Of a stretch of 64,000 nucleotides of DNA, positions 5,156 through 42,376 are shown in pieces. Source of the DNA: an uncultured Chthonomonadaceae bacterium (GTDB taxonomy: Bacteria; Armatimonadota; Chthonomonadetes; Chthonomonadales; CAJBBX01); the NCBI GenBank assembly GCA_964396385.1, contig CAYNFH010000004.1, positions 5,008 to 69,007 of the forward strand. Reading direction: 5' to 3'. The first letter of the stretch is position 1. Each line of letters opens with the position of its first letter. Position numbers and translations under genes: made by a program. The notes beneath the pieces are model-generated. The model saw only the letters and a list, made by a program, of their open reading frames with translations. It searched no databases and was not told the DNA's origin.

Positions 5156-5228
5156 GGAGTGATGGAGTATTAGTGTAATGTCTCGGATCCCCATTCCGGT
5201 GCCCACCACTCCATCACTCCACTACTCC
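5156..5228. repeat. Intergenic hairpin repeat with GGAGTGATGGAGT arms
   Basis: Left arm GGAGTGATGGAGTATTAGTG, right arm CACCACTCCATCACTCCACTACTCC. Same arm family as the elements at 7028-7115 and 42293-42376. Confidence 0.8.
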
Positions 5229-7027: not shown

Positions 7028-7115
7028 GGAGTACTGGAGTGATGGAGTGGCGGGATAATGGGCCCGGATTCCGCCTCCCGGACACAACTCCATTACTCCA
7101 ATACTCCATCACTCC
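7028..7115. repeat. Intergenic hairpin repeat (GGAGTGATGGAGT arms, CCGGATTCC core)
   Basis: Left arm GGAGTACTGGAGTGATGGAGTGG. The loop contains CCGGATTCC at 7064-7072. Right arm ACTCCATTACTCCAATACTCCATCACTCC. Confidence 0.85.
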
Positions 7116-27154: not shown

Positions 27155-27167
27155 TAGAGTTCGACAG

Positions 27168-29275: not shown

Positions 29276-30346
29276 ATGAGATACGCAACTCGGATAGGTC
29301 TAGTCATCCTATTGGGCTTAGGCGGGACTGTTGTCCCGTGGGTCCGTGTTCCGGCGCACGCGGGGCGTGCGGGGGCGGCCCGCACCTACACGAACCCGGT
29401 GTGGAACCACGATTTCCCGGATCCGTTTCTCCTGGAGTACGGGGGCCGGTTCTATGCGTACGCTACCCAGACCAACGGCTATGGCTACCAGGTGATGGAG
29501 TCGCCGGACATGGTCCGCTGGACCCATCGGGGCACGGCCTACATCCCGCCATGGTCCAGGGAGCACCTGTGGGCGCCGGAGGTGGTGCACTACCGCGGCC
29601 GGTTCTACCTGATCCACTCGGCGCGCAACCCGCAGAGCGGCCGGCACGACATCGGCATCGCTACCTCGGAGAGCCCGCTCGGCCCGTTCATGTACGGCGC
29701 CATCCTGGTGCGCGCGGACGAGAAGGTGGGCGGCTGCATCGACGCGGACATCTTCTTCGATAGGGACGGCACGCCCTATCTCACGTACTCGGAGGAGCAC
29801 CCGCGGCGCATCGTAGTGCGCAGGATGGCCCCGGACCTGATGTCGGTGGATTCGGAGGTGACGGAGCTGGTCCGCCCAGACCGGCCGTGGGAGCGCGGCG
29901 TCACAGAGGCGCCCACACTCATCCTGCGGAACGGCGTCTACCATCTCTTCTTCTCCGTGGGGTGGTACCAGAGCAACAAGAAGGACGCCTGCTACGCCGT
30001 CTGTCACGCCAGCAGCCGCTCCGTGCGGGGACCATTCGTGAAGGACCCGGACCCCATCCTCGCGACCGTGCCGGAGAAGGTGTACGGCCCCGGCCACCAG
30101 TGCGTAATCCGGCTTCCGAGCGGAGAGTGGTGGATGGGCTACCACGGCTGGGACAACCAGAACGAGCCGATGTACGGCTCCAACCCCATCGGCCGCTCCC
30201 TGCGCATCGACCGGATGGAGTGGCATCGCGACTCCCCCCGCGTTCTGGGCCCCACCACCACGCCACAGCCCGCCCCCAACCTCCGCGGCCTCCGCATGAA
30301 TCCCATACGGACCGAGCAAAGGAGCCACGCCCATGCCGGACGGTAG
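29276..30346 (+). CDS. Glycoside hydrolase family 43 (secreted paralogue)
   Basis: Signal peptide plus NPVWNHDFPDPF. High nucleotide identity to the 19656-20714 gene over the TEAPTLILRNGVYHLFFSVGWYQS region. Confidence 0.85.
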   Translation: MRYATRIGLVILLGLGGTVVPWVRVPAHAGRAGAARTYTNPVWNHDFPDPFLLEYGGRFYAYATQTNGYGYQVMESPDMVRWTHRGTAYIPPWSREHLWAPEVVHYRGRFYLIHSARNPQSGRHDIGIATSESPLGPFMYGAILVRADEKVGGCIDADIFFDRDGTPYLTYSEEHPRRIVVRRMAPDLMSVDSEVTELVRPDRPWERGVTEAPTLILRNGVYHLFFSVGWYQSNKKDACYAVCHASSRSVRGPFVKDPDPILATVPEKVYGPGHQCVIRLPSGEWWMGYHGWDNQNEPMYGSNPIGRSLRIDRMEWHRDSPRVLGPTTTPQPAPNLRGLRMNPIRTEQRSHAHAGR

Positions 30347-32831
30347 CGGAATCACGCGCCGCAGGTTCCTTGCCACATCGCTGGCAGGGCTCGCCGCAGT
30401 GGAGTGGCCCAGTGCGGAGGGAATGCCGCGCGACCACGCCGCCGTCCAGGATGCGCTGGCGCTGACGGACCCGGCCGGCGTGCGCCTGCAAGGGTACGTG
30501 GGCGAGAAGATAGACCTGGACCTCCGCAACCGCGTCATGGCGCAGGACATCCACAAGCTGGTGAAGCCCTTCTTCGACCAGACGGAGGTGGGTGACGGCG
30601 ACTGGCGCAACGAGTACTGGGGCAAGTGGATCACCTCCGCGGTAGAAGCGTACGACTACGAGCCCTCCCCGGAGCGCCGAGCCGTTGTGGAGCGCGGCGT
30701 AAGCGAGCTGCTGCCCGCCCAGAATCCGGACGGCTACATCGGCACGCGCAGCAAGGCCAGCCGCCTGCACGGGTGGGACGTTTGGGGCCGCAAGTACGTG
30801 CTGCTGGGGCTCCTCGCCTGCTACGATATGACCGGCAGCCGCACCATCCTGAACGCCGCCCGGCGCCACGAGGACAGCCTGCTCGCGGAGGTCGGCCCGG
30901 AGCCGGGCAAGGCCAACATCGCGGAGGTGAGCTACCAGGACCACCAGAGCCTGCCTTCCTGTTCCGTGCTGGAGCCCACGGTGCTGCTCTACCGCCGCAC
31001 CGGCGACCCGCGCTACCTGCGGTTTGCCGAGTACATTGTGGGCCAGTGGTCCAGGCCCAACCGCTTCAATCCCACCGGCATCCGGCTGGTAGAGAAGGCT
31101 ACTGTGGGCGCGCCGCCTTCCAGCATAGCTAATGGCAAGGCTTACGAGATGACCTCCTGCTTCGAGGGGCTGGCGGAGCTGTACCGCGCCACCGGGAAAC
31201 CGGAGTACCTGGAGGCGTGCCGGCGTTACGCGGACGGAATCGTGCGGGACGAGCTGTTCGTAGTCGGCTCCGGCTCCAGCCGGGAGGTGTGGTTCGGCGG
31301 CCGATCCAAACAGACGCAGGATAACCCGGATCCGATGGAGACCTGCGTCACGGCCACATGGATGAAGTACTGCCTGCAACTCCTCCGGCTCACCGGCGAC
31401 TCCCGGTACGCGGACCAGATGGAGATCAGCCTGTACAACGCGCTGCTGGGCGCGCTTAAGCCGGACGGAAGCTGGTGGGGCTACTACACGCCCATGCAGG
31501 GAATCAAGCGGCCGAGCGGCATCCAGCACGCGGACGTGGGGCTGAGCTGCTGCGTGGCCAACGGTCCCCGCGCCCTGATGCTCACGCCGCAGTGGGCCGT
31601 TATGGCCAGTGGCCGCCGACAGGAATCCGGTCTCACGACTCACGACTCACGACTCACGACTTTCGATGGCGTCGTGGTGAACGTGTACTGTCCGGGCACG
31701 GCGACAGCGAGGATGGCGTCCGGGCGGCGCGTCCGAATCGAGCAGGAGACGGAATATCCCGTGACGGACCAGGTGCGGCTCACAGTGCGGCCGGAGCGTC
31801 CGGCCACCTTTACGCTCAGCCTGCGCATCCCGGAGTGGAGCGAGCGGAACGCGCTGGAGGTGAACGGCCGGCCGGCGGACGTGGAGCTCCGGCCGGGCTC
31901 GTACGCGGCGGTCCGTCGCCCGTGGAAGCCGGGCGACACGGTTACGCTCACGCTGGACCTGCGCGGCAGGGTGCTGGAGGACCCCGGCAAGTCCGGAGCA
32001 GTCGCCGTCCTGCGCGGGCCGATTGTGCTGGCGATGGATCGGCGGCTGGTGAAAGATGACGGAGGACGGAGGACGGAGGACAGATCCGGAATCCGACTCA
32101 TCAACCCTCAACCTTCAACCTTCAACCAGATGCCGGATGGGCGGATCGAGCTGAAGCAACTGGCGGCGCCGGCAGGAATCTGGATGGCCTTTGAGGCGCC
32201 GTGCTCGACGGAGGGCGGCGGAGAGGCCCGGCTGCCGCTGTGCGACTACGCCTCGGCGGGCAACACGTGGGGTCGGGATTCGGAGTTCCGCGTGTGGCTG
32301 CCCCAGCCGCTGGAGGGGTTCGGGTCCGAGGCCGTCTCCCTCCAGGGCGCTTCCTGGATCTGGTTCGCAGGGGATCGCGGCGCCCGGTCGCAGCGTTACG
32401 CGCCTGCGGAGGACCTGCCGGCGGGGACGCGATACTTCCGGCGCGTCCTGGAGGTTCCATCCGGGATCCGGCGGGCGCGCATCACGCTCACCGCCGACGA
32501 CGGCTTCGTGCTCTACGTGAACGGCGAGGAAGTAGGGCAGGCGGCGGACTGGGGGCACCTGCACACGTTCGACATCACGCGCCGCCTCCGCGCCGGACGA
32601 AACGTGATCGCGGTGGCAGCCACCAACGCGAGCGTGTCTCCAGCCGGGCTTATCGCCGGCATCGAGCTGCTGCCAGCCGGCGGCCGGCCGGTTGTGCTGC
32701 TCACGGGCGCGGACTGGAAGAGCGCTGAGAATTCCGGAGCGAACTGGCAGGCGGTGGAATTCGACGACAGCGTCTGGTCCGCCGCCCGAGTCCTCGGCCC
32801 GTTCGGCATGGCTCCCTGGGGCGACTTGTAG
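30333..32831 (+). CDS. GH127-like (DUF1680, beta-L-arabinofuranosidase family) protein with a TAT signal and a C-terminal galactose-binding/rhamnosidase-N-like domain
   Basis: TAT motif RRRFLATSLAG. GLSCCVANGPR matches the Cys-Cys zinc/nucleophile motif of GH127. C-terminal WIWF...TRYFRR...LTADDGFVLYVNGEEVG. Two low-complexity inserts. Confidence 0.8.
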   Translation: MPDGSGITRRRFLATSLAGLAAVEWPSAEGMPRDHAAVQDALALTDPAGVRLQGYVGEKIDLDLRNRVMAQDIHKLVKPFFDQTEVGDGDWRNEYWGKWITSAVEAYDYEPSPERRAVVERGVSELLPAQNPDGYIGTRSKASRLHGWDVWGRKYVLLGLLACYDMTGSRTILNAARRHEDSLLAEVGPEPGKANIAEVSYQDHQSLPSCSVLEPTVLLYRRTGDPRYLRFAEYIVGQWSRPNRFNPTGIRLVEKATVGAPPSSIANGKAYEMTSCFEGLAELYRATGKPEYLEACRRYADGIVRDELFVVGSGSSREVWFGGRSKQTQDNPDPMETCVTATWMKYCLQLLRLTGDSRYADQMEISLYNALLGALKPDGSWWGYYTPMQGIKRPSGIQHADVGLSCCVANGPRALMLTPQWAVMASGRRQESGLTTHDSRLTTFDGVVVNVYCPGTATARMASGRRVRIEQETEYPVTDQVRLTVRPERPATFTLSLRIPEWSERNALEVNGRPADVELRPGSYAAVRRPWKPGDTVTLTLDLRGRVLEDPGKSGAVAVLRGPIVLAMDRRLVKDDGGRRTEDRSGIRLINPQPSTFNQMPDGRIELKQLAAPAGIWMAFEAPCSTEGGGEARLPLCDYASAGNTWGRDSEFRVWLPQPLEGFGSEAVSLQGASWIWFAGDRGARSQRYAPAEDLPAGTRYFRRVLEVPSGIRRARITLTADDGFVLYVNGEEVGQAADWGHLHTFDITRRLRAGRNVIAVAATNASVSPAGLIAGIELLPAGGRPVVLLTGADWKSAENSGANWQAVEFDDSVWSAARVLGPFGMAPWGDL
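31623..31661. repeat. Heptamer element inside the GH127 CDS (GGAATCCGG core plus CACGACT x4)
   Basis: Reverse complement of the GAGTCGT x4 / GAGACCGGAATC segment at 1977-2012. Encodes SGLTTHDSRLTT in both host genes. Confidence 0.85.
32061..32128. repeat. Heptamer element inside the GH127 CDS (GGAGGAC x3, CCGGAATCC core, TCAACCT x4)
   Basis: Read directly from the sequence. The GGAGGAC arm recurs in queE (57011-57045) and at 52174-52224. The TCAACCT arm recurs, reverse-complemented, at 29232-29245. Confidence 0.85.
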
Positions 32832-33105
32832 GGCCGGTCCCGCGTAGCCGCCCGCCTCGCCTGCAACCTCGGCGTGCCGGGCTGGGTTCTAGAGGCAGGA
32901 GGAAGTCGTGCCTGAGCCATCTGAGAGACCGGAGCCGTCGATTGGGGCGCTGATTGCGCGCGGGATCGCGATGATCGTGTGCGCGATTGTCGCGGCGAAC
33001 GTGATCCTCGCGCTGCATGCGCCGGTGGGGCACTGAGGTCCCCTGGCATGGGCCGGCGATTCCGGTACTGTCTGGACCCGGTGTTCCTGGGGGCCGCCGC
33101 GCTCT
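32826..33105 (+). repeat. Left copy of an approximately 280-bp direct repeat
   Basis: Near-identical to 40588-40866 with only scattered mismatches. Covers a small ORF plus the first 19 or so codons of the membrane protein gene. Confidence 0.9.
32908..33036 (+). CDS. Small membrane protein (42 aa), duplicated at 40670-40798
   Basis: GTG start behind a GGAGGAAG RBS. Sequence VPEPSERPEPSIGALIARGIAMIVCAIVAANVILALHAPVGH. Confidence 0.4.
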   Translation: MPEPSERPEPSIGALIARGIAMIVCAIVAANVILALHAPVGH

Positions 33106-33464
33106 ACCTGCTCAACCGCTTCGCGCTGAAGCCGCTGGAGGGGCCACATGGCGGCTTCTTCCACAGCTACGGCAACGACCTGCTCTGCATCCCCTTCTGC
33201 CTTCCTCCCTGCCTCTGGGCGTACCGCCGTCTCGGCGTGCGGGACCATGACCGGATGCCGACGCGCTTTGAGCTGGCGGCGCACGTGGTGGTCTGGTCCG
33301 TCTACTTCGAGGCCGTCGCGCCGCACCTGCGGGCGTTCTCCTGGACGGTAGGAGATCCGTGGGATGCGGTGAGCTACGCGGTGGGGGCGGCGGTGGCGGG
33401 CGTGTTCTGGGGAGTGTTCCGCCCGGCGACCGCGGCGCGCCCTGTTGCGGAGGCGGCGCCGTGA
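33048..33464 (+). CDS. Small polytopic membrane protein
   Basis: 138 aa with 3-4 hydrophobic segments. Its first 19 or so codons are duplicated as a truncated remnant at 40810-40881. Confidence 0.55.
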   Translation: MGRRFRYCLDPVFLGAAALYLLNRFALKPLEGPHGGFFHSYGNDLLCIPFCLPPCLWAYRRLGVRDHDRMPTRFELAAHVVVWSVYFEAVAPHLRAFSWTVGDPWDAVSYAVGAAVAGVFWGVFRPATAARPVAEAAP

Positions 33465-34252
33465 AGCGGCTCGCTTTCGCGGCGTACTCGCTGGCGTGCC
33501 TGAGTGCGCTGGCGGTGCCGGTACGGGCGCTTGGCTATGTGGCATCCTTGCCTCAGCGGCACCTCATACCCCTCTGGACAGTCCTCTGGTGGCTGGCGGC
33601 CATCGCCGCGCCGCTTGGAGCCGTGTTGGGCGGCTTGTGCGCACTGCTGCGCTCGGAGAGCGGGCGACGGATTCCGCACCCGCGGGCTACGGCGGCTATC
33701 GTGGTGGGCGGATTCAGCGCGCTCATCATGCCGTACATGATTCGGTATGTGGACGAAGCGCGGGGCATCCTCTACGACAATTCCGGACGGAAGGCAGCCT
33801 GTTTCAGCAATTTGAGGCAGGTGGGTCTCGCCGTGTCGATGTACGCTCAGGACTACGACCGACAGCTTCCCTTCGCAGCGAGTTGGCACGACGCCGTCTA
33901 TCCATACCTCAAGAACGAGTATGTCTTTCAATGTCCATCTGCAGAGGACCAAACGCAGTCGTCGTATGGACTCAATCGGCGCATCACCGGCCTGCACCTG
34001 CCCGACTTGAGCAATCCAGTTGAGGCCGTGATGGATTTCGACTCCATTCCGGGCAGGAACCAAGCTGGCGGAGTGGAGCTGCTGCCCGAACCGCCGCGCC
34101 ACGTGGATGGGGAGAATATCGGGTTCATCGACGGTCACGTGAAGTTCACGGCTGAGGGTCGAATCCCTAGTCTGGAGTGGCGACCAACACTTCTGACTAC
34201 CGGCGCACCGGAGCATGGAGATCGAAGAGGTCGAAGAGTTCGGTCTCGGTGA
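33461..34252 (+). CDS. Membrane protein with a DUF1559-like (H-X9-DG) C-terminal domain
   Basis: GTG start overlaps the upstream TGA. Three TM segments, then NLRQVGLAVSMYAQDYD and HVDGENIGFIDGHV. Confidence 0.6.
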   Translation: MKRLAFAAYSLACLSALAVPVRALGYVASLPQRHLIPLWTVLWWLAAIAAPLGAVLGGLCALLRSESGRRIPHPRATAAIVVGGFSALIMPYMIRYVDEARGILYDNSGRKAACFSNLRQVGLAVSMYAQDYDRQLPFAASWHDAVYPYLKNEYVFQCPSAEDQTQSSYGLNRRITGLHLPDLSNPVEAVMDFDSIPGRNQAGGVELLPEPPRHVDGENIGFIDGHVKFTAEGRIPSLEWRPTLLTTGAPEHGDRRGRRVRSR

Positions 34253-35846
34253 GGGCGGTGGAGAGATCGAGGGTGGCATCGTCCACCACCTCCTGGAAGA
34301 TGCGGCGCTTCTCGCGCAGCTTGGCGTCGATACGCTCCTCGATGGTATTCGCGCAGACGTATCGATAGACGGTAACCGGGCGCTCCTGACCCAACCGGTG
34401 CGCCCGGCCCTCCGCTTGGTCCTCCACCGCGGGATTCCACCAGCGGTCCAGGTGGAAGACGTAGGACGCGGCCTGCAGGTTGAGGCCGTACCCTCCTGCC
34501 CTCAACGAGAGCAGAAGCGCCCTGTGCTCCGGATGGGAGAGAAAGAGATCCACTACCCGGGTACGCTCCCGGAGGCTCATCTTGCCGGTAAACAGGAGCG
34601 GCTTGAACTCTGCCAGGCAGGCCGCTGCCCGCTCCAGCCCGAACGTGGCGTCCACGAACTGAGAGAAGACAAGCGCCTTCTGGCCCTCCTGCTCCAGCAG
34701 CCGCAGCCTTTCGGAGATATCGGCCAGCTTCCCGGATTCGCCGGTGGCCGGATCGAAGTTGCAGAGCTGCTTGAGTCGCGCGATGAGCTCGAGCACATGG
34801 ACGATGTTGACGGCGCCCTCCGCCCTGCGGAGCCGAACGATCCCCTCCTGCTCGGCCAGTTCGTACGCCGCCCTCTGCCCGGCCGGAAGCTCAATAACCA
34901 CCTCGTTGATCCGCTTGCGCGGCAGTTCCGGCAGCACGTCCTCCATCCGCCGTCGGAGCTGGACGGAATGCAGACGGGCGCGAACCTGTGCCGGCTCGGA
35001 GGAAGTCGAGGGCTCCTGCCAGTCTGGCAGCAGAAAGGCGAGCAGCGAAGCCACGTCCTCCAGACTGTTCTCCAGTGGAGTACCCGTGAGCGCCCACCGG
35101 CGCGAGGCCGGGACTCGCCGGCAGGCTACGGAGACCGCCGCGTGTCGGTTCTTGATGCGCGAAGCCTCATCCAGAATCAGAACGCTCCATGGCGCACGCA
35201 TGGCCGGGCTGTCCCGCACCTCCATCACGTCTGACCGGACCGTCTCATAACCGGCCAGCCGCACGTGTGCCGGCACGCGCCAGAGGTGGCCGCGCTCAGC
35301 CGGATCACCGGATACCATCGCCACCCGCAGGTCCGGCGCCCACCGCGCTAACTCTCGCCGCCACTGGGGCAGGAGCGACGCCGGACATACGATCAGAGCC
35401 GATTCCGCCTCCTGCCGGTGGAACAGGATGCGCAGCGCGGCGATGGTCTGGACGGTCTTGCCGAGACCCATCGAGTCCGCAAGGAGCAGGGCGGACCGGG
35501 TGAGAAGCGCCAGGACCCCTTCTCGCTGGTATGGCAGCAGCGGTGCGGGCCATTCCAGCACGCCATTGGGCGTTGCGAGCGAGGTGACGGGACACTGCAG
35601 CGCTGCAGCCAGCCTCCGCAGGAGGTCGGCGGCCTCCGAAAGCGGCGGCTTGTCCCCTAAGCCTTCCTCGCCCTCTCCGTTAGCGGAGTCCAAGGCGTCG
35701 CTCAGCGCATCGAAATCAAACCAGCCGATGGTGTGCCGCAGGGCGCGGCCCATGCTCCAGGTGGGCGGTTCGACGCGGCCTGCTTCTGCCAGGCGGAAGG
35801 CACCAACCGGCTCCCGCCGTGCGATGCCAACGCTAAAGGGTGTCAT
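34197..35846 (-). CDS. SNF2-family helicase (compact, 549 aa)
   Basis: LLPYQREGV, DSMGLGKTVQ (motif I), LILDEASRIKN (motif II), LVFSQF, and RAHRLGQERPVTVYRYV (motif VI). Confidence 0.9.
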   Translation of the reverse strand: MTPFSVGIARREPVGAFRLAEAGRVEPPTWSMGRALRHTIGWFDFDALSDALDSANGEGEEGLGDKPPLSEAADLLRRLAAALQCPVTSLATPNGVLEWPAPLLPYQREGVLALLTRSALLLADSMGLGKTVQTIAALRILFHRQEAESALIVCPASLLPQWRRELARWAPDLRVAMVSGDPAERGHLWRVPAHVRLAGYETVRSDVMEVRDSPAMRAPWSVLILDEASRIKNRHAAVSVACRRVPASRRWALTGTPLENSLEDVASLLAFLLPDWQEPSTSSEPAQVRARLHSVQLRRRMEDVLPELPRKRINEVVIELPAGQRAAYELAEQEGIVRLRRAEGAVNIVHVLELIARLKQLCNFDPATGESGKLADISERLRLLEQEGQKALVFSQFVDATFGLERAAACLAEFKPLLFTGKMSLRERTRVVDLFLSHPEHRALLLSLRAGGYGLNLQAASYVFHLDRWWNPAVEDQAEGRAHRLGQERPVTVYRYVCANTIEERIDAKLREKRRIFQEVVDDATLDLSTALTETELFDLFDLHAPVRR

Positions 35847-35852
35847 TGAGTC

Positions 35853-35878
35853 TCAGGTGTTCAGGTGTTCAGGTGTTG
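35853..35878. repeat. Tandem octamer TCAGGTGT x3
   Basis: Lies between the SNF2 start and the upstream gene's stop. Same GGTGTTCAGG word as the hairpin at 36498-36549. Confidence 0.8.
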
Positions 35879-35938
35879 GGGACCAGTCACCTACGGAGTC
35901 CGTGCCTACATCGCCATAGATATGCCGCCATGCAGCAT

Positions 35939-36484
35939 TCACGTCCATTCGCGTTCATTCGCGGCCAACGACTCCCAGCTTGTTTGTGGATAGACCAGCC
36001 TCAGAGCCTGTAGCAGTCGCTCGAACGGCTCTGTGATGAAACCGCGGCGAGCGAGCTCATGCGCGAGGATGGCGGCCTTCATGCCCGAGGAAGGCGGATC
36101 GTTCACCCAGGCCCATTCGGCCGGTATCCCCTCCCGCGGCGGGACCACCTGTACGCACGGGATAGAAGGGGCGATCTCCGTCCGGCAGTACTCCGCCGAG
36201 CCCAGAGACGGTAAGCAGACCAGGAGGTCCGGCTCGCGGCGGCAGGCATCGAACAGGGAGTGAGTGAGGAGGGTAGTCCCCATGGGACGGACCTTCTCCT
36301 CCGGCCAGAGCAGTCCGGCCGGAGCGGCCAGGGTGTTGTGAACGAATTCCTGGGGCTGCCCCTTACCGTCGATGATCAGCAGACCGCCATAGAAGGAGCG
36401 GTCCGGCGGCAGCCATCGTACGTTCAGGTATGCCGCCAGGCCGTATTCCGCCGCCCGCGGCGTCTTGCGGTAGGGGACAGGCAT
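35939..36484 (-). CDS. Hypothetical protein (181 aa) within the SNF2/ATPase cassette
   Basis: Co-directional ORF with ordinary composition. No motif recognised. Bracketed by GGTGTTCAGG-type repeats. Confidence 0.6.
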   Translation of the reverse strand: MPVPYRKTPRAAEYGLAAYLNVRWLPPDRSFYGGLLIIDGKGQPQEFVHNTLAAPAGLLWPEEKVRPMGTTLLTHSLFDACRREPDLLVCLPSLGSAEYCRTEIAPSIPCVQVVPPREGIPAEWAWVNDPPSSGMKAAILAHELARRGFITEPFERLLQALRLVYPQTSWESLAANEREWT

Positions 36485-36497
36485 GGGTGAAAACCTG

Positions 36498-36549
36498 GGT
36501 GTTCAGGCGCTCGGACCCGAATACAGGAATACCTGAATACCTGAACACC
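36498..36549. repeat. Intergenic hairpin repeat (GGTGTTCAGG / CCTGAACACC arms)
   Basis: GGTGTTCAGG ... ATACCTGA ATACCTGA ACACC. The complementary arms flank an approximately 30-nt centre. Confidence 0.8.
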
Positions 36550-36552
36550 GTC

Positions 36553-37776
36553 CTATTCCTTGGCGTCCTCTTCCTCCGCGATGATGTCTGCGTCTGTAAT
36601 CTTGGTGGGGTCGAAGTGAACGTCTTCGACCTCTACGTCCGGGCGGTACTCCGGGTAGTAACGGTGTAGGTCCCATCGCGTGATCCATCCCCGAATCTCG
36701 GAGCGTATCGAGGTGCGGACATCGGCATGGCTCTCCGGGAGGGTGGGGACGGCGATGCCGTAAGCCTGCTCGTAGATCGCCTTGATCCGGTACTTTACCT
36801 CCTCCTCCTGCTCTCTGGTGGGCGATTCCAGCCGGTATGGGCTCTTCAGCATCTCGATACCGTAGAGCGCGCGACGGTCCCGCTCGTCCGCCGCAAAGCC
36901 GGAAGTGGCAAGCCGCTCCTCGTCGCGTGTGCCGCCGGTCACCGATTCCGCCACGAATCCGCTGGCGGTAGTGAACACCGGCAGCAGCGCGCTGCCGGTC
37001 TGCTCCGCCGCCTCACGCCACCAGCCAAGCTCGGAATAGGCCGCGAGGCGCTGGTTGAGCGAGAACTTGGCCACGCGCTCCATCTCATCGAACAAGATCA
37101 CCCAGCCCTTGCAGCCCGCCGCGCGGAAGATCTGGGCCAGGAGCCGGATGCGGTCATGGGCGAGAAGCCGGCTCGGAGGTCCCGCCAGGTCGTATGCCGC
37201 AGCCTGGCTGATCTGTTTGAGCCGGTTCTTGATGATGTTGCGGATTATTCCCCGGCCTTCGAAGTCGTTCAGGATCTGGAGGCGCAGCTCCTCATCGGCG
37301 CGGAATGCTTCGTAGATGTGCAGGAGAGCTCGGAAGCGGTCGTCTATACTCGCCGTGCGCGTCCACTCCTGCAGCGCGCGGTACTCCTCGGAATCGGTGC
37401 GCAGTGTGGACGCCAGCGCCCGAAGTGCCTTGCCGGCCTGCCCCGGGGCATGCGCCGCATCGGCTAAGGCCTTGACCACAAGCTGACCGTTGCCCAGCGG
37501 CATTTCCGGACTTATCACCACATAGCTGGTAACGAATCCCTCTCGCTCCGCAAGGATCTGGAGGTAGTTCAACAGGTGCGTCTTGCCCGCCCCGAAAGTG
37601 GCAGAGATAACGATGGGATTTGCGCCTCGGCCCTCCGCCAGGTTGTCCAGCTCGTCCTCGAATCGCTCCCGCACGTCATGCTGGGTGGTGCCAAGCTGCG
37701 CCGCCGCGTCGCGGCTGGGCACACCGGACCGTAGCGATTCCACCGCGCTACGCGCCATGACCGCATCCGGGCTCAT
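36553..37776 (-). CDS. BrxD/DUF2791-like P-loop ATPase
   Basis: N-terminal AVESLRSGVPSRD, Walker A ISATFGAGKTHLLNYL, and Walker B GWVILFDEMERV. The layout is as I remember for PF10923 (BrxC_BrxD). Its ATG overlaps the upstream stop by 4 nt. Confidence 0.75.
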   Translation of the reverse strand: MSPDAVMARSAVESLRSGVPSRDAAAQLGTTQHDVRERFEDELDNLAEGRGANPIVISATFGAGKTHLLNYLQILAEREGFVTSYVVISPEMPLGNGQLVVKALADAAHAPGQAGKALRALASTLRTDSEEYRALQEWTRTASIDDRFRALLHIYEAFRADEELRLQILNDFEGRGIIRNIIKNRLKQISQAAAYDLAGPPSRLLAHDRIRLLAQIFRAAGCKGWVILFDEMERVAKFSLNQRLAAYSELGWWREAAEQTGSALLPVFTTASGFVAESVTGGTRDEERLATSGFAADERDRRALYGIEMLKSPYRLESPTREQEEEVKYRIKAIYEQAYGIAVPTLPESHADVRTSIRSEIRGWITRWDLHRYYPEYRPDVEVEDVHFDPTKITDADIIAEEEDAKE

Positions 37777-38885
37777 GCCGAGTCCTCCAGGAAGACCAGC
37801 GACGCCGCCCGATTGGCGAACTGCACGTCATGCACCTCCTGCCCGATGCGCGTCTGTAAGGCGTCGTAGTCGAAATAGCAGCGCTTCACGCTCGGATCGA
37901 GAGTCTTGTCGCGGTAGAAGTCGGGAGTGGTGAGGATCACCAGCTGGAACCGCTCGAACCGGTCGATCTCGTCGATGAAGCGGCGGACCATGGTAAGCAT
38001 CTGCATGTAGGCCGCGTCGCTATATGTGACGTCGGGCTCGCTGGACGCATCTTCCGCCGCCAGCCGCGCCAGCTCATCCGCGCTCGCTCCGCGGGCCAGC
38101 GCCTCCCTGACAAGCTGAAGCTGCTCCGCCTGTCGCTTGCCTCGGCCCACCCTCTTATACTCGTACGGCCGGAAGTCGAACGTGACTACCAGGCCCGCGT
38201 GACCGGAGTGCGGCAACCATCGGCAGAAGGAAGCCAGCATGGATCGGGCGTTGCCGAGATTGATCCTCTCATAGATCAGGACCTTCTTGAGAGCGGATGC
38301 CGCTCCGGGCATGGTCCGGCCGTGGAACCAGCCCAACAGCACCTCTTCCGTGGTCGGCGTTACGGCATCCGGAATGAGCTGCGCGCGTCCGAGCGCCGTG
38401 ATGGCGGTACGGAACTCGATGGAGAGGCGCGGATCCCGGAGCTGCGGGGTGGCGAGCTGCTGCTGATACTGGTTAAGGAGGTCCTGCGGCTCACGTCCAT
38501 TGTCGCGCGCGATGCGGTCCAGATCATTCAGAGCACGCCCCTCCGCCAGGTGAATGCCCTGAGATTGCAGGTAATGACGCGCCTGCACTCCCGCCCACGC
38601 GCGCCAGTCAACGTCCCGCGTGACCGCGAAGTAAAAGCGGTCGATGCGGTGGTAGTCCGGCCGTTTGCCCTCCGGTGTTCGCTGTGCCGGGTCCAGGTGC
38701 GCGTGGTAGTAGCCGCCGTTCCGGGCCATCTGGGCGACCGTCTCGGCCGCCCGCTCCGGAAGGTCTCCCTCACCGGTGATTACCTTGACGGCGGAGCCTC
38801 CGGAGCGCACGTAGTCGGCGAGGTACTCGCAGTCCAGCACCTCTGTCCAGGCACCCAGCGGAACGCGCGGCACGATATCACCCAT
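37773..38885 (-). CDS. Hypothetical protein, apparently a P-loop-less paralogue of the adjacent ATPase
   Basis: SGGSAVKVITGEGDLPE sits where the neighbour has GRGANPIVISATFGAGKT. AGLVVTFDFRPYEY sits where the neighbour has GWVILFDEMERV. Translationally coupled to the ATPase gene. Confidence 0.6.
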   Translation of the reverse strand: MGDIVPRVPLGAWTEVLDCEYLADYVRSGGSAVKVITGEGDLPERAAETVAQMARNGGYYHAHLDPAQRTPEGKRPDYHRIDRFYFAVTRDVDWRAWAGVQARHYLQSQGIHLAEGRALNDLDRIARDNGREPQDLLNQYQQQLATPQLRDPRLSIEFRTAITALGRAQLIPDAVTPTTEEVLLGWFHGRTMPGAASALKKVLIYERINLGNARSMLASFCRWLPHSGHAGLVVTFDFRPYEYKRVGRGKRQAEQLQLVREALARGASADELARLAAEDASSEPDVTYSDAAYMQMLTMVRRFIDEIDRFERFQLVILTTPDFYRDKTLDPSVKRCYFDYDALQTRIGQEVHDVQFANRAASLVFLEDSA

Positions 38886-38902
38886 GCGCCTTGTTACCCC
38901 TT

Positions 38903-39661
38903 CTATTTGAACCAGATGGCGTAGTAGCGGATGGGCCGGCCGTCTTCGGAGCTGACCTGGAATACGTCCCGCTCCTTGGCGTTGCCGGACGGGTACTCTA
39001 TCTCAAACGTGCGGCCGCCGCGCGTTGCCCGCAGGCCTGAGCGGTGCAGGGCATATATCTGCTGGGCGAATGCCATCGGAGGGTTCTCCCGCTTGTATCC
39101 CGGAGAGAGGCAGAACAGATCGTAGATGTCGCGGAATTTGGCGAACGGCCGCTCCTTGCCGCCCAGGTACTGGCAGGCGCCCAAGAGGCTCTCCAGGAAT
39201 TCCTGTGAGTTGGCGGCGGCGGTGCGGTTCCGCAGCCGCTTGAGTTCCTCGGCGGCTACGCTGGGCCGGATGAAGGGCCAGGAGAGCTTTCCCAGCAGAA
39301 GCACGCCTCGGGCGGGCTGCGCGCGAACCGTAACCGGCGAGGAGATGAGGGTGTCGTCTTCCGCGACCGTCCGGAGGCCGAACCGCTCGGAGGCGGTCTG
39401 CTGGAGCTCCTGCCGCCAGGCGTCGCCTTCCAGGTAGGTGCGAGAGTCAAACTCCCAGGCTTGCCGGGCGTCTCTCGTGGTTTGCGGCAGAGCGCCGCCT
39501 AGCTCCTCCGCTTGCGCCGCGGCCTTCTGCATGTTACCGAGGTGGCCGTGGTGGCAGGCTTTCTTCCAGGCTTTGAGCGCGCTGACGTACTTCCCGGCCG
39601 CCTTGACCAGCCCGTCCACACGCTCCTCCTGCTCCTGCAGCGCCTCCTCCAAGCTCAACAT
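38903..39661 (-). CDS. Hypothetical protein (252 aa), first gene of the cassette
   Basis: ATG 39659-39661 behind an AGGAGG RBS. The longer 385-aa ORF would run through the opposite-strand gene at 39758-40066. Confidence 0.6.
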   Translation of the reverse strand: MLSLEEALQEQEERVDGLVKAAGKYVSALKAWKKACHHGHLGNMQKAAAQAEELGGALPQTTRDARQAWEFDSRTYLEGDAWRQELQQTASERFGLRTVAEDDTLISSPVTVRAQPARGVLLLGKLSWPFIRPSVAAEELKRLRNRTAAANSQEFLESLLGACQYLGGKERPFAKFRDIYDLFCLSPGYKRENPPMAFAQQIYALHRSGLRATRGGRTFEIEYPSGNAKERDVFQVSSEDGRPIRYYAIWFK

Positions 39662-39753
39662 AGCACCTCCTGGTACTTTGCCCCATTCTACCCGCTTAGT
39701 GCGTGCCCTTCCCAGGAACCTCGCGCTCTCAGTGCCAACCTGTCGGCCAACGG

Positions 39754-39759
39754 TATAAT
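39754..39759 (+). promoter_or_regulatory. Possible -10 box (TATAAT) for the HEPN-module operon
   Basis: Perfect TATAAT with no good -35. If it is used, the transcript would start near ATG 39767, giving a leaderless mRNA. Confidence 0.25.
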
Positions 39760-40066
39760 GATGAGCATGAAAACGCTGGCCGATTCTCTGATTGGTGGAT
39801 TGACTGAGTCCAAGGAACTCGAACGTGTCTTGCGGGAGCGTGTTGGAGCGTCCATCCAAGTTGCAGATTGGGTGGTCGGCGAAGGTACCGATGCGGGGGG
39901 CGACAGGGCCATCTGGGTTTACGGCCTGCTGAGTGACCCCGACACTTCCTTCGAGATCACGGCCAATGTTCGCAAGGAAGTACGGGCTGTTATCCAAGAC
40001 GCTTTGGGCAGCGATGCCCCCTGGGTCTACGTGCGCTTCACCGATGCCGCTGAAGTTCACGGTTAA
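39758..40066 (+). CDS. Small hypothetical protein (about 100 aa), upstream partner of the HEPN-like protein
   Basis: TAATG stop/start overlap with the next gene. The start may be ATG 39758, 39761 or 39767. Confidence 0.5.
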   Translation: MMSMKTLADSLIGGLTESKELERVLRERVGASIQVADWVVGEGTDAGGDRAIWVYGLLSDPDTSFEITANVRKEVRAVIQDALGSDAPWVYVRFTDAAEVHG

Positions 40067-40572
40067 TGGCTCTCCATCACGACCTTCTTGCTCAAGCTCG
40101 CCTTCTTGCCACTCATGAACCCCGAAAGCCCAAGCAGGCGAGTTTGCGCCGGGCCATTTCTACAGCGTACTATGCTCTATTTCACCTACTGACATCCGAA
40201 GCCGCAGGTAGTTGGTTGACAGGAGCCGGACGTGACGCATTGCGAGCTTCCCTCAGGCGTGCATTTGACCATTCTACGATGAGGCGAGCATGCCAGGAGA
40301 TTGTGAAGCCCAACGAAGGCAAACTGCATTCCGCATTGTGCGGAGTGCCGTGCCCGCCTCGACTGAAGGACGTGGCGGCCGCGTTTGTGGAGCTTCAGCA
40401 AGCCCGACACGAGGCAGACTACGACGTTACCCACCGCTACACGCGTCGAGAGGCACTGGAAATGGTAATGCTCGCCGAAGGCGCCTTCGACGATTGGCGG
40501 GCCGCGCGCAATAGCATTCCGGCAGAGGCCTTCCTGGCCGCCCTTATCGCCGAGAGAGGCATGGGGCGCTAG
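40066..40572 (+). CDS. HEPN-like protein
   Basis: LRRAISTAYYALFHLL helix and the RHEADYD motif (R-x-x-x-D-Y, classical HEPN type), in a 168-aa all-helical-looking protein. Confidence 0.55.
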   Translation: MALHHDLLAQARLLATHEPRKPKQASLRRAISTAYYALFHLLTSEAAGSWLTGAGRDALRASLRRAFDHSTMRRACQEIVKPNEGKLHSALCGVPCPPRLKDVAAAFVELQQARHEADYDVTHRYTRREALEMVMLAEGAFDDWRAARNSIPAEAFLAALIAERGMGR

Positions 40573-40587
40573 CGTCTTCGAAGTGAG

Positions 40588-40866
40588 TTGTAGGGGCAGC
40601 CCTGCGTAGCCGGCCGCGTCGCCTGCAACCTCGGCGTGCCGGGCTGAGTTCTAGAGGCAGGAGGAAGTCGTGCCTGAGCCGCCTGAGAGACCGGAGCCGT
40701 CGATTGGGGCGCTGATTGCGCGCGGGATCGCGATGATCGTGTGCGCGATTGTCGCGGCGAACTTGATCCTCGCGCTGCATGCGCCGGTGGGGCACTGAGG
40801 CCGAAGCGGATGGCCGCGCGATTCCGCTACTGCCCGGACCCGATATTCCTGGCGGCCGCCGCGCCC
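40588..40866 (+). repeat. Right copy of the approximately 280-bp direct repeat
   Basis: Matches 32826-33105. Carries the duplicated small ORF (40670-40798) and a truncated start of the membrane protein gene. Confidence 0.9.
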
Positions 40867-40881
40867 TCCCTCAGGCAATAG
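40810..40881 (+). pseudogene. Truncated duplicate of the 5' end of the 33048-33464 membrane protein gene
   Basis: MAARFRYCPDPIFLAAAAPSLRQ-stop compared with MGRRFRYCLDPVFLGAAALYLL... in the intact copy. Confidence 0.7.
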
Positions 40882-41057
40882 CTTCGGCTTCCTGGACGGA
40901 CACGCGAGGTCTGTGACTCAGGACAAGGTCCCCACTCTGCAATGGCGGCCAGGCGTTAACCAGAGTCACCCCCGTTGACGACCACTGCTTTCGCTTCGCA
41001 GGAGCCAAGCCTCCGCGAAGAGAACAGGGCTTCACCAAGTCAGCCGGAGCAACAAGA

Positions 41058-42299
41058 ATGCCCTGGATTCCGTCTCCTTCCCTCTGCTGCGCTGTGGCTA
41101 TCGTGGCGGCCGGATGCCTGATGGCTGTGGCCACCGGGCAGACGCGGGAGTGGCCCAGCGTGGAGATGCTGCCGGCCAACCCGGAACTGCCGGACCCGCT
41201 GATGATGTTCGACGGCACGCGCGTTACCACCAGGCGGCAGTGGAGAATGGAGCGGCGGCCGGAGCTCAAGCGGCTCTTTGAACACTATATGTACGGTACG
41301 GCGCCTCCTCCTCCCCGCAACCTCAAAGCCACCCTGGAGCGCGAGGACCCGCGGTTCTTTGGCGGCAAGGCTACCGAGCGGCAGGTGACGCTGCGGTTCG
41401 GCCCGAAGGACACGCCTCCCATTCACCTGCTCCTGCTCATCCCCAACCGGCGAAGCAGCCCCGCGCCGGCCTTCGCGGGCCTCGCCTTCTGCCGCAACTA
41501 CGCCGTGGTGGACGATCCCACGCTCCCCAGGCCGGCCGGCGCGAAGGACCCGCGCGGCTCTCAGAGGGACACCTGGAATGTGGAGCAGTCCATCGACCGG
41601 GGCTACGCCGTGGCCACCTTCTTCAACGGGGACGTGGAGCCGGACGACCCGAACGCCACCACCGGCGTGCGGGCAAGCTACCGCCCGGTGGGACGCTGGG
41701 ACTGGGGCACCATCGCCGCCTGGGCATGGGGCATCCAGCGCGTGGTGGACTACCTCCGGACCGTGCCGGATATCGACCGCCGCCGCATCGCCGCGGTGGG
41801 CCACTCACGCAACGGCAAGGCAGCCCTGCTCGCCGCCGCTTTCGACGAACGCATCGCCCTCGCCATCCCGCTCCAGGCCGGCTGCGGGGGTACGGCCCCC
41901 AGCCGCGGGACGGTCGGGGAGTCTGTACAGGCGATTAACGACCGCTTTCCGCACTGGTTCAACGCACGGTTCAAGCGGTTCAACAACCGGCCGGAGCGGC
42001 TGCCCTTCGACCAGAATGGCCTGTTAGCCCTCGTGGCCCCGCGGCCGGTGCTCTTCTCCAACGCGACGGAGGACACCTGGGCCAATCCGGCCGGCCAGTT
42101 CGAGGTGCTGCGCGGCGCCGACCCGGTTTACCGCTTCCTTGGGGTGGATGGGCTGGGAGCCCAGCAGATGCCGCCCACCGGCGAGCTCCTCAACAGCCGG
42201 CTCGGCTACTTCGTCCGCCCCGGCCAGCACTCGATGACACGCGTGGACTGGAACGCGTTCCTGGATTATGCCGACCAGTGGCTGAAGGCACCGGAGTAG
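41058..42299 (+). CDS. Carbohydrate esterase family 15 (glucuronoyl esterase)-like
   Basis: Signal peptide. GHSRNGKAAL serine motif (G-x-S-R-x-GK), and the N-terminal LPDPLMMFDGTRV region typical of CE15. Confidence 0.8.
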   Translation: MPWIPSPSLCCAVAIVAAGCLMAVATGQTREWPSVEMLPANPELPDPLMMFDGTRVTTRRQWRMERRPELKRLFEHYMYGTAPPPPRNLKATLEREDPRFFGGKATERQVTLRFGPKDTPPIHLLLLIPNRRSSPAPAFAGLAFCRNYAVVDDPTLPRPAGAKDPRGSQRDTWNVEQSIDRGYAVATFFNGDVEPDDPNATTGVRASYRPVGRWDWGTIAAWAWGIQRVVDYLRTVPDIDRRRIAAVGHSRNGKAALLAAAFDERIALAIPLQAGCGGTAPSRGTVGESVQAINDRFPHWFNARFKRFNNRPERLPFDQNGLLALVAPRPVLFSNATEDTWANPAGQFEVLRGADPVYRFLGVDGLGAQQMPPTGELLNSRLGYFVRPGQHSMTRVDWNAFLDYADQWLKAPE

Positions 42300-42376
42300 A
42301 GGAGTGTTGGAGTGATGGAGTAGTGACTCCGGATTCCGCTTCACAGCACTCCATCACTCCAGTACTCCAGCACTCC
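42293..42376. repeat. Hairpin repeat (GGAGTGATGGAGT arms, CCGGATTCC core) overlapping the sulfotransferase 5' end
   Basis: Left arm GGAGTAGAGGAGTGTTGGAGTGATGGAGTAGTG, core at 42329-42337, right arm CAGCACTCCATCACTCCAGTACTCCAGCACTCC. Confidence 0.85.

Follow-up and report, generated by a model that had tools for sequence, protein, structure and literature searches.

Direct repeats around a composite gene block in a Chthonomonadaceae genome: the start of a native operon and a probable old partial duplicate

An uncultured Chthonomonadaceae bacterium carries a block of membrane-protein, BrxD-like/SNF2, and HEPN-like genes between two direct repeats, with a GH127 gene on one side and a CE15 gene on the other. 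This arrangement raises the question of whether the repeats are the ends of a mobile element or have another origin. We analyzed a 64,000-nt stretch of contig CAYNFH010000004.1 that contains this locus, referred to below as the window.

Results

A repeat search of the window returned a two-copy direct repeat family (287 nt, 90% ungapped identity, spacing of 7,762 nt), and gapped local alignment of the two copies left the borders unchanged. The alignment score of 435, compared with 33 for the best of 200 shuffles, rules out chance as the source of the match. The two direct repeats reported in a preliminary description of this DNA are real, and the self-alignment fixed their borders as listed here with the genes on either side.

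30333-32831, + strand: GH127 beta-L-arabinofuranosidase-like gene, left neighbor; its TTGTAG end is the start of the repeat
32823-33109, + strand: left repeat copy, the predicted 5′ end of a native operon; borders from repeat search and alignment
40585-40871, + strand: right repeat copy, a putative partial duplicate of the operon 5′ end, between an HEPN-like gene and the CE15 gene
41058-42299, + strand: CE15 glucuronoyl-esterase-like gene, right neighbor, starting 187 nt after the right copy

Both copies lie in direct orientation on the same replicon and begin at TTGTAG, which in the left copy is the last codon plus the stop codon of the GH127 gene and is followed there by an intergenic leader. 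Each copy contains an AGGAGG ribosome-binding site (RBS), a 42-codon ORF with a GTG start, and the first ∼20 codons of a membrane-protein gene. The copies differ at 27 positions, and the flanking DNA of each is distinct. The anatomy proposed earlier, with a small ORF and RBS in each copy, an intact gene on the left, and a truncated gene copy on the right, was borne out, as was the gene content assigned to the DNA between the repeats.

The left copy opens onto a set of three genes, referred to here as the triad, that encodes a small ORF product of 42-45 aa, a membrane protein of ∼140 aa, and a DUF1559-like membrane protein.

32908-33036, + strand: left small ORF, first gene of the triad; 42 aa, one hydrophobic helix, ending in ...GH
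33048-33464, + strand: intact gene for a 138-aa membrane protein, second gene of the triad
33461-34252, + strand: gene for a 263-aa DUF1559-like membrane protein, third gene of the triad (weak PF07596 match, 23.7 bits)

The 138-aa membrane protein matched no family in Pfam or NCBIfam and belongs to a small family, with 26 members found. Over its last ∼19 codons, the DUF1559-like gene overlaps, in antisense, the 3′ end of the SNF2 gene described below. The triad is intact in relatives in three unrelated genomic contexts (loci L085, L086-88, and L089/90). In these, homologous small ORFs of 44-45 aa occupy the equivalent position (L085, L086, and L089/L090), the membrane protein has 144-153 aa, and DUF1559-like orthologs of 274-292 aa lie downstream of the membrane gene (L085, L086, and L089). 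Because the triad is conserved in three unrelated contexts, the left repeat is best read as the normal promoter-proximal start of a native operon, not as the end of an element.

The right copy has a different character, with an intact small ORF followed by a decayed gene start.

40670-40798, + strand: right small ORF, intact; S5P, V32L, and one synonymous change relative to the left copy
40810-40881, + strand: decayed membrane-gene fragment; 11 differences in 62 nt, 7 of 21 aa changed

The small ORFs of the two copies therefore differ at 3 nt and 2 aa. In the membrane-gene fragment, homology is lost near a 1-nt indel and a stop is reached at codon 24, after 23 codons; the changes in this fragment are pseudogene-like and rich in replacements. 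The right copy aligns with the left one throughout, including the intergenic leader, which cannot be aligned to L085 or L089, and the orthologous regions of these two loci are more distant from it than the left copy is. These comparisons argue that the right copy is a partial duplicate born in this lineage. Recent acquisition of the segment, as the preliminary description had considered, is not supported: the right copy shows ∼20-25% decay in its flanks, of a pseudogene-like kind, which is the pattern of an old, diverged duplication that the same description had named as contrary to its proposal.

Identity between the copies is uneven along their length, at 81% in the outer 31 nt, 98% in a core of 182 nt, and 75% in the outer 71 nt on the other side. 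The earlier term near-identical thus holds for the core but not for the two outer parts.

32857-33038, + strand: high-identity repeat core (right counterpart 40619-40800); 4 mismatches in 182 nt, 98% identity

The core spans the RBS and the whole small ORF and includes perfect runs of 28, 33, 80, and 37 nt. The contrast in divergence between the small ORF and the following 73 nt is significant (p = 1e-6, Fisher test). Among the 43 codons of the small ORF, only one third-position difference was seen, compared with ∼7 expected at the ∼17% third-position divergence seen in the adjacent membrane-gene fragment; with only four differences in the core, these synonymous-site statistics are thin. On this comparison, selection on the protein alone would not be enough to explain the third-position conservation. 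A 98% core within flanks of 75-81% points to an old duplication in which the core was later homogenized by gene conversion, and it suggests past exchange of sequence between them. One end of the core lies no more than 2 nt from the stop codon of the small ORF, a hint that selection on the ORF, and not a randomly placed conversion tract, set this border. The tract corresponds almost exactly to the RBS plus the entire small ORF, so conversion and selection for a functional second copy cannot be told apart.

Independent assemblies bear on the reality of this arrangement. The left copy was found at 100% identity in Logan contigs of four SRA runs, and one Logan contig contains the junction between the HEPN-like gene and the right repeat, with right-type SNPs, so the repeat is not an artifact of one assembly. 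A mis-join in the source contig that created the duplication or misplaced the block would also have to account for 27 differences and two distinct flanks, and adjacent SNPs between the copies are at most 83 nt apart and therefore phasable by ordinary large-k assembly. Although no independent contig runs from the right copy across the truncated fragment into the CE15 gene, so that this junction is known only from the present assembly, we consider a mis-join highly improbable.

Contig L004 (run SRR12266073) reads from the 3′ end of the HEPN-like gene through a hybrid repeat into the intact membrane gene and the DUF1559-like gene, and its sequence on either side of the repeat matches the window at 100% identity. 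This gene order would be expected if recombination between the cores were at present releasing the block as a circle or amplifying it in tandem. Such activity would concern present-day dynamics and is therefore compatible with any origin of the repeats, and the mosaic identity is consistent with copies that do recombine. However, the repeat in L004 alternates between right-, left-, right-, and left-type from one SNP site to the next, at spacings above 31 nt. Bubble-popping in a k=31 graph yields such a zig-zag, whereas a single crossover does not, and on this basis L004 is probably an assembly chimera rather than a circle or tandem junction. The Logan contigs here span no more than 1.0-1.6 kb, a sign of probable low coverage, under which an assembly can drop branches. 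Two others (L001 and L003) stop exactly at the core end (position 33009), a break that an unresolved two-copy repeat would produce, and L002 carries the normal GH127-repeat-membrane junction. Taken with these observations, ongoing recombination is possible but doubtful.

Downstream of the triad, the block contains a five-gene cassette (34197-39661, − strand), recognized by Pfam and PADLOC matches and a conserved gene order. Its genes are given in transcription order.

38903-39661, − strand: p252
37773-38885, − strand: BrxD-like protein, 370 aa, without a Walker A motif
36553-37776, − strand: BrxD-like protein, 407 aa, with GAGKT
35939-36484, − strand: p181
34197-35846, − strand: SNF2 helicase, 549 aa

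The five-gene order is kept at 60-78% amino acid identity in two other series of loci (L103-L109 and L091-L098), and as an operon the cassette is conserved among Chthonomonadales and Capsulimonas metagenome-assembled genomes, where it is sited in other contexts. At the ∼20 related loci examined, neither the triad, the HEPN-like pair, nor flanking direct repeats were found beside it. Because it is conserved elsewhere without these partners, the cassette appears to be an independent unit. Like the BrxD module of BREX and the SngB module of Shango, both ATPase-helicase defense modules, it has a BrxD-family P-loop ATPase (PF10923) beside a superfamily-2 helicase (PADLOC matches to BrxD, 1.9e-14, and SngB, 2.3e-8). 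Assignment to BREX was rejected because PglX, PglZ, BrxA, BrxB, and BrxC are absent, and assignment to Shango because the large TerB-type SngA is absent. Relative to both systems, the cassette adds the BrxD-like paralog without Walker A and two small proteins without a detectable family.

Between the cassette and the right repeat lies a two-gene HEPN-like module (39758-40572, + strand), defined by composition, profile matches, and an AlphaFold2 model.

39758/39767-40066, + strand: ∼100-aa protein, first gene of the module
40066-40572, + strand: HEPN-like protein, 168 aa, second gene of the module

The 168-aa protein matches PF05168 (E = 0.019), and its family profile matches HEPN proteins in the PDB (E = 0.001-0.004). 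The top fold match of its model (pLDDT 93.5) is the HEPN protein 2hsb (probability 1.0, TM-score 0.43/0.55). In its RHxADY motif, Arg-114, Ala-117, Asp-118, and Tyr-119 are invariant and His-115 is nearly so. GC3 is 0.85-0.88 in host genes, 0.78-0.85 in the cassette, and 0.60-0.62 in the HEPN-like pair, which on this measure appears foreign. The enclosed DNA is composite, in that the continuation of the native operon is followed by a resident cassette and then by a foreign HEPN-like pair. The earlier view of the segment as one accessory or mobile unit does not fit this content, as the first 1.4 kb is the conserved triad and the remainder is two unrelated modules.

The foreign composition of the genes immediately to the left of the right copy (GC3 0.60) could mean that this copy arrived with the HEPN-like pair, and perhaps with the cassette, from the chromosome of a close relative. 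In such a donor, the module would have stood just upstream of its own triad; after insertion by illegitimate recombination, the core would later have been converted by the resident copy. The 19-25% divergence of the flanks could then be the distance between donor and recipient, and L004 shows the corresponding order of HEPN-like gene, repeat, and intact membrane gene. However, L004 is identical to the window outside the repeat and therefore belongs to the same strain and not to a diverged donor, and at no related locus does the HEPN-like pair stand beside the triad. In addition, functional orthologs would differ mostly at synonymous sites, unlike the replacement-rich fragment. We consider this passenger origin unlikely.

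As had been reported, the repeats are accompanied by neither a recombinase nor a tRNA: there is no tRNA in the whole window, and a domain search of the major ORFs from 24.8 to 48.5 kb detected no integrase or transposase. No inverted repeats bounding the segment were found. The locus resembles integrase-borne genomic or defense islands in that defense-like cargo between direct repeats interrupts metabolic genes. It differs from them in having no integrase and no tRNA or att target, in having ∼290 nt of coding sequence at 90% identity where those islands have short identical att cores, and in including a conserved native operon in the cargo.

A recombinase-free route of acquisition would be a Campbell-type event, in which a circle carrying the triad 5′ end, the membrane genes, the cassette, and the HEPN-like pair entered a chromosomal copy by a single homologous crossover. 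This corresponds to the earlier suggestion of an element carrying a partial target copy, since the crossover duplicates the homology on both sides. A block flanked by direct repeats without a site-specific recombinase, an 80-nt perfect run long enough for RecA, and the junction in L004 are all as expected for such a circle. Nevertheless, this route requires that a truncated triad (the small ORF plus 20 codons) already stood before the CE15 gene and that the triad on the circle was complete and came from a very close relative. Flanks at 75-81% imply great age or a diverged donor, and yet no known ortholog is nearly as close to the right copy as the left copy is. In none of the ∼20 related loci examined was the cassette found together with the triad or with repeats, and the block has no replication or transfer genes. 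Entry as a circle is accordingly quite improbable.

Discussion

The explanation that we favor, with modest confidence, is that the repeats are the start of the native triad and an old partial intragenomic duplicate of it, with a converted core, composite contents between them, and only passive movement. No close relative was found in public data (best GH127 homolog, 58%), and the ancestral arrangement and the order of events given below are inferred. The earlier idea that the GH127 and CE15 genes would form one cluster without the segment has no support from synteny, as no CE15 gene was found near the closest GH127 loci (55-56% identity).

In the favored explanation, a local rearrangement would have left a partial duplicate of the triad 5′ end 7.76 kb downstream. 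Most likely, either the block was duplicated in tandem and most of the second copy was then deleted, or a templated copy was made during repair at that joint. The membrane-gene fragment and outer leader of the right copy would have decayed neutrally to 75-81% identity, while RecA-type gene conversion with the left copy would have reset the central 182 nt to 98%. A second functional small ORF may be under selection and help to keep the core.

These features resemble bacterial segmental duplication with gene conversion, in which an intact native gene start is paired with a truncated, decaying copy and a near-identical tract lies in diverged flanks, in direct orientation on one replicon. The difference is that the tract here is almost exactly a complete small ORF with its RBS. 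The locus also resembles substrates of RecA-dependent deletion and amplification (Streptomyces amplifiable units and rrn- or IS-bounded duplications) in having a block of several kilobases between direct repeats, a perfect run above the minimal pairing length, and no dedicated recombinase. The expected outcome would be either a deletion with release of a circle or a tandem array; here the repeats are short and 90% identical overall, and the sole junction-like contig is the probable chimera L004. If real, L004 would indicate an ongoing circular or tandem form, which the picture of an old relic does not require.

The earlier proposal that the repeats could support homologous deletion agrees with their perfect runs and the suggested past exchange. 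Such recombination, acting on the cores, could remove the 7.76-kb block or multiply it in tandem. Because the repeats are best read as a native operon start and its old, partly decayed copy, we conclude that they reflect ordinary genome rearrangement rather than the ends of a mobile element, and that the capacity of the block for movement would be passive only, as nothing inside it encodes mobility.

Borders and content of the repeat pair

A repeat search of the window returned a single two-copy direct family, 32823-33109 and 40585-40871 (the left and right copies), with 90% ungapped identity over 287 nt and a spacing of 7,762 nt. The same borders were obtained by gapped local alignment, with a score of 435 compared with a maximum of 33 in 200 shuffles. 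Both copies open with TTGTAG, which in the left copy is the last codon and stop of the GH127 gene, and each contains an AGGAGG ribosome-binding site, a 42-codon ORF that starts with GTG, an 11-nt spacer, and the start of a second ORF. This self-comparison and a reading of the sequence confirm the anatomy that the preliminary description had assigned to the repeats, the small ORF, and the truncated gene. The features in and between the two copies are as follows.

30333-32831, GH127 gene
32908-33036, small ORF of the left copy, 42 codons, GTG start
33048-33464, second ORF of the left copy, intact, encoding a 138-aa membrane protein
33048-34252, rest of the triad (membrane gene and DUF1559-like gene) between the repeat copies
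~39758-40572, plus strand, two-gene module encoding a ~100-aa partner and a 168-aa HEPN-like product (the HEPN pair)
40670-40798, small ORF of the right copy, 42 codons, GTG start
40810-40881, second ORF of the right copy, stop after 23 codons

The block is made up of three independent modules, namely the rest of the triad, a five-gene minus-strand cassette, and the HEPN pair. Composition separates these modules: GC3 is 0.85-0.88 in GH43, GH127, the membrane gene, and CE15, 0.78-0.85 in the cassette, and 0.60-0.62 in the HEPN pair.

The copies share perfect runs of 80, 37, 33, and 28 nt and are longer than the minimum needed for homologous pairing; in this respect the block resembles repeat-bounded units that can be amplified or deleted. 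A structured RNA or riboswitch in the core of the repeat was rejected after an Rfam search of 32-42 kb, which gave only a sub-threshold Xoo8 match within the HEPN gene (20 bits, where the gathering score is 90), and after folding of the core, which gave no sign of structure (z = -0.77). Scans for sigma-70 promoters and terminators found none in either copy, and a role for the right copy as a promoter source for CE15 is speculation. The sequence that follows the right copy (40860-41060) has no similarity elsewhere in the window and so gives no clue to a deletion endpoint.

A separate 35-nt similarity was observed between the N-terminal coding regions of GH127 and CE15 (30401-30435 and 41147-41181; 74% identical overall and fully so over the first 12 nt). 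The stretch reads '..EWPS.E..' in translation, immediately downstream of the predicted signal peptides, and could be chance or a common maturation motif.

A conserved three-gene operon at the left copy

We found 26 members of the family of the 138-aa membrane protein, a small one that has no Pfam or NCBIfam model. Its gene context was examined in three relatives at 58-78% amino acid identity (loci L085, L086-L088, and L089/L090), and in all three the membrane gene is the middle member of a triad. In these relatives, a 44-45-aa ORF lies directly upstream of a 144-153-aa membrane protein gene, and the stop of the latter is overlapped by a third gene encoding a 274-292-aa protein whose N terminus has membrane helices and whose C-terminal part is DUF1559/HX9DG-like. 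The small ORFs of the window and the relatives have in common their length, one hydrophobic helix, and a C terminus ending in ...H.P.GH or ...GH, which marks the small ORF as a real conserved gene, with two copies in this genome.

The neighbors of the triad are wholly different among the three relatives, and GH127, CE15, the cassette, and the HEPN-like gene were found near none of these triad loci. Conservation of the triad amid differing neighbors identifies the left copy as the place where a native three-gene operon begins. What had been described as an accessory segment opens with 1.4 kb of this triad operon. Self-comparison of the relatives' triad loci revealed no second partial copy, and recurrent duplication of the triad start was rejected on this ground.

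Divergence of the right copy around a near-identical core

Identity between the copies is unevenly distributed over three parts (left-copy coordinates).

32826-32856, outer leader, 6 mismatches in 31 nt, 81% identity
32857-33038, core, 4 mismatches in 182 nt, 98% identity
33039-33109, downstream flank, 18 mismatches in 71 nt, 75% identity

The contrast in mismatches between the small ORF and the 73 nt that follow it is significant, if drawn from a small sample (Fisher p = 1e-6). In the membrane-gene fragment of the right copy, 11 nucleotide changes alter 7 of the 21 amino acids and are spread evenly over codon positions, as in a pseudogene. The two copies of the small ORF differ by one synonymous and two replacement changes. 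Counted on the sequences, the 43 codons of the small ORF contain one third-position change, compared with ~7 expected from the ~17% third-position divergence in the adjoining gene fragment. This deficit indicates that selection on the peptide alone is insufficient to explain the identity of the small ORFs, for which gene conversion from the left copy would account; selection to keep a second small ORF functional may also contribute.

In a four-way alignment of the left copy, the right copy, L085, and L089, the right copy aligns with the left over its full extent. The match takes in the intergenic leader, which could not be aligned with the orthologous regions of L085 and L089. This pattern points to a duplicate that arose within this lineage and was not imported from a distant relative. 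That the right copy was instead brought in as flanking DNA together with the compositionally distinct HEPN pair is unlikely. Over the same coding stretch, the window and L085 differ at the nucleotide level to an extent comparable with the divergence of the flanks (~20-25%), which indicates that the original duplication is old. The preliminary description had held that diverged repeats would point to an old duplication and not to a recent acquisition; this holds in part, for the flanks (81% and 75% identical).

The locus has the marks of a partial duplication: a native conserved start paired with a truncated copy, a copy nearer to its partner than to the orthologues, and a sharply bounded tract of high identity. 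We hold with modest confidence that the right copy is an old partial duplicate of the operon start, with decayed flanks and a core homogenized by conversion, and that the block has no mobility of its own. An old local rearrangement would have placed a partial duplicate of the operon start 7.76 kb downstream, probably by tandem duplication of the block and deletion of most of the second copy or by templated copying during repair of a joint. The right copy would then have decayed in its outer parts, and the core would later have been homogenized with the intact copy by RecA-type conversion. The block resembles known partial duplications with gene conversion; this kind of rearrangement is already known, and the locus is a fresh instance of it.

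Tests for a mobile element

Pfam, NCBIfam, and PADLOC scans of the major ORFs in 24.8-48.5 kb gave no recombinase or transposase domain, and no tRNA or tmRNA was found in the window, in agreement with the earlier statement that integrase, transposase, and tRNA are absent; the 30-44 kb region contains no inverted repeats. Site-specific integrative elements and islands have a tyrosine or serine integrase or recombinase near one end and short identical att repeats, often with a tRNA or tmRNA. Here there is no integrase, and the repeats are 287 nt long, 90% identical, mosaic, and coding, unlike att sites. Composite transposons carry an IS or transposase and terminal inverted repeats, whereas the coding content of the unit repeated here is a small membrane ORF and part of a gene. 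The block could also stem from a circle that bore a copy of the triad and integrated in Campbell fashion, but we consider this unlikely, slightly more so than joint import with the HEPN pair. The proposal of a discrete, recently acquired element was not borne out, as the first 1.4 kb is native operon and the other repeat a decayed duplicate.

A search for close relatives that might show an empty site (GH127, one repeat, CE15) yielded none: the top homologue of GH127 in a set of 5.8 billion proteins reaches 58% identity, and the best match in a scan of one genome per species reaches 56%. Neither CE15 nor the triad lies near the nearest GH127 loci (L005 and L006).

Metagenome contigs that cover the repeats

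Four short Logan contigs (from SRR12266071, -72, -73, and -77; L001-L004) match the left copy at 100% identity, and one reproduces the junction between HEPN and the right copy. More than one assembly thus contains the duplication, and it is highly improbable that the duplication or the placement of the block is an assembly artifact. Exact-protein look-ups of both small-ORF copies, the HEPN-like protein, and CE15 returned no records, and hence no second assembly of the joint between the right copy and CE15.

Two of the contigs (L001 and L003) begin at 33009, where 31-mers first become unique to the left copy; a k=31 assembly graph would be expected to break there when a repeat has two copies. 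Contig L002 runs from GH127 through a repeat with left-type SNPs throughout into the membrane gene. Contig L004 runs from the 3' end of HEPN through a repeat into an intact membrane gene and the DUF1559-like gene, and along its repeat, consecutive SNP sites separated by more than 31 nt are in turn of right, left, right, and left type. The contigs are ~1 kb long each, which suggests low coverage, and no contig joining GH127, one repeat, and CE15 was found.

An excised circle or a tandem duplication would produce the joint seen in L004, which might thus be a real recombinant junction produced by ongoing excision or amplification. Its zig-zag SNPs are unlike a single crossover, however, and this leaves ongoing recombination a doubtful, if serious, possibility. 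Because such a mosaic is typical of k=31 graph chimeras and the contigs are short, L004 is better explained as a chimeric path with arbitrary bubble choices. Whether the block is excised or amplified today is a separate question about the present state of the locus, and such activity could be compatible with any origin.

A further reading, which we regard as improbable, is that the repeat pair is a maintained recombination device and not a relic, with exchange between the cores holding their identity at 98% and permitting reversible carriage, amplification, and loss of the block. Were it true, a 7.5-kb block with a candidate defense cassette and a toxin-like gene would be switched reversibly with no dedicated recombinase, and L004 would be a genuine circle or tandem junction. 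For an old duplicate homogenized by conversion, as we prefer, the cores could still mediate deletion or amplification of the block.

The five-gene cassette

The cassette (34197-39661) consists of five minus-strand genes, given here in transcription order.

38903-39661, minus strand, p252, first gene, 252 aa
minus strand, second gene, BrxD-like, 370 aa, no Walker A motif
minus strand, third gene, BrxD-like ATPase, 407 aa, with GAGKT
minus strand, fourth gene, p181, 181 aa
minus strand, fifth gene, SNF2 helicase, 549 aa

For p252, the mechanically listed ORF of 385 aa overlaps a gene on the opposite strand, and comparison with relatives places the true start at an internal Met. The five genes occur in identical order, at 60-78% amino acid identity, in Chthonomonadales and Capsulimonas MAGs and in metagenome contigs. 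These loci have unrelated contexts, with no triad, HEPN pair, or long flanking repeats. The 407-aa ATPase alone has 324 matches at E <= 1e-5, including Planctomycetota, Deltaproteobacteria, and Janthinobacterium; a metagenome scan with it yielded only 12 loci, mostly short. There was no match to the cassette in 72,556 plasmids or in IMG/VR, and a degenerate small-ORF pattern was absent from viral contigs. Sequence searches of the PDB with p252, p181, and the 407-aa ATPase returned nothing meaningful.

PADLOC matched individual cassette domains and no system (BrxD, 1.9e-14; SngB, 2.3e-8, weak; ZorD, DpdE, and DrmD on the helicase core). BREX systems carry the methyltransferase PglX, the phosphatase PglZ, and BrxC beside BrxD, whereas only two BrxD-like proteins and SNF2 are found here; PADLOC and Pfam gave no PglX, PglZ, or BrxA/B, and the BrxC model matched marginally, over the P-loop region only. 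Shango has three genes, encoding a large TerB-domain protein (SngA), an ATPase (SngB), and a helicase (SngC), with sizes of ~770, 439, and 732 aa in a published example (PMC11973324). The cassette differs in having five genes of 252, 370, 407, 181, and 549 aa, and neither p252 nor p181 matched TerB or SngA at E <= 1-10.

Homology of the DUF1559-like ORF to its relatives ends after 'WRPTL'. This gene is convergent with that of the SNF2 helicase and shares 56 nt with it (34196-34252), such that the last ~19 codons of the DUF1559-like ORF are antisense to the 3' end of the helicase gene. The loss of homology and the antisense tail place the junction of the cassette with the native operon exactly after 'WRPTL', and it may be that the operon's original 3' end was replaced at the time the cassette became its neighbor.

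The HEPN-like pair

The 168-aa product matches PF05168 at E = 0.019, and 4 of 36 members of its family match this model as well; the family is large, with 3,068 representatives. In the family's RHxADY motif, Arg-114, Ala-117, Asp-118, and Tyr-119 are invariant, and His-115 is present in at least 90% of members. The family profile matches HEPN proteins in the PDB at E = 0.0012-0.0044. An AlphaFold2 model built on a 36-sequence alignment had a pLDDT of 93.5 (49 for a single-sequence model), and its top fold match was the HEPN protein 2hsb, with a TM-score of 0.43/0.55. We predict, with moderate confidence, that the product has a HEPN fold with a conserved R..H-type motif. The ~100-aa upstream partner has no Pfam (even at E <= 10), NCBIfam, or PADLOC match. 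The pair thus has the predicted HEPN fold of a HEPN-MNT toxin-antitoxin module but not the adjacent MNT partner.

Other features of the window

A second compositionally foreign block (24831-28241; GC3 0.61-0.66 compared with 0.85-0.88 for the host) lies directly upstream of GH43/GH127. It encodes a SIR2_2 plus AAA protein (608 aa), a nucleoside 2-deoxyribosyltransferase (166 aa), and a NUDIX protein (396 aa), has weak PADLOC matches to ThsA, LmuA (SIR2), and PDC-S07, and is a candidate defense islet.

The window contains many tandem arrays of 7 or 8 nt in 3-5 copies, at the six sites given here and ~20 others, and these are reminiscent of the short tandemly repeated sequences known from cyanobacteria. 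Heptamer arrays lie inside the GH127 coding sequence (31632-31661, 32058-32081, and 32101-32127), further arrays lie at 35853-35877, 36515-36549, and 42344-42376, and octamer arrays occupy gaps between the cassette genes.

A 22-nt motif, CACTCCATCACTCCAsTACTCC, was counted seven times, compared with 0 expected by chance, in these intervals.

5207-5228, 22-nt motif
7028-7049, 22-nt motif
7086-7107, 22-nt motif
42293-42376, 22-nt motif

An inverted pair straddles the CE15 stop and overlaps the nominal start of the sulfotransferase ORF. The motif may be a dispersed intergenic repeat or a terminator element. In the sulfotransferase the Pfam match covers nothing before residue 34, and translation of this gene probably starts downstream of 42376. 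At 22082-22873 there are four tandem ~138-nt units, with identities of 66-78%, and a 102-nt pair related to them; a repeat-domain protein is probably encoded here.

Implications

The main yield of this analysis is a correction of annotation, in which one "end" of the block would be a native operon start and the other its decayed duplicate; direct repeats that flank defense-like genes are easily mistaken for the ends of a mobile element. Loss or amplification of the block by ordinary homologous recombination could matter for strain-level variation and for assembly of the region. The cassette is a more interesting object than the repeats: as a widespread, uncharacterized operon and a candidate system, it is worth study independently of them.
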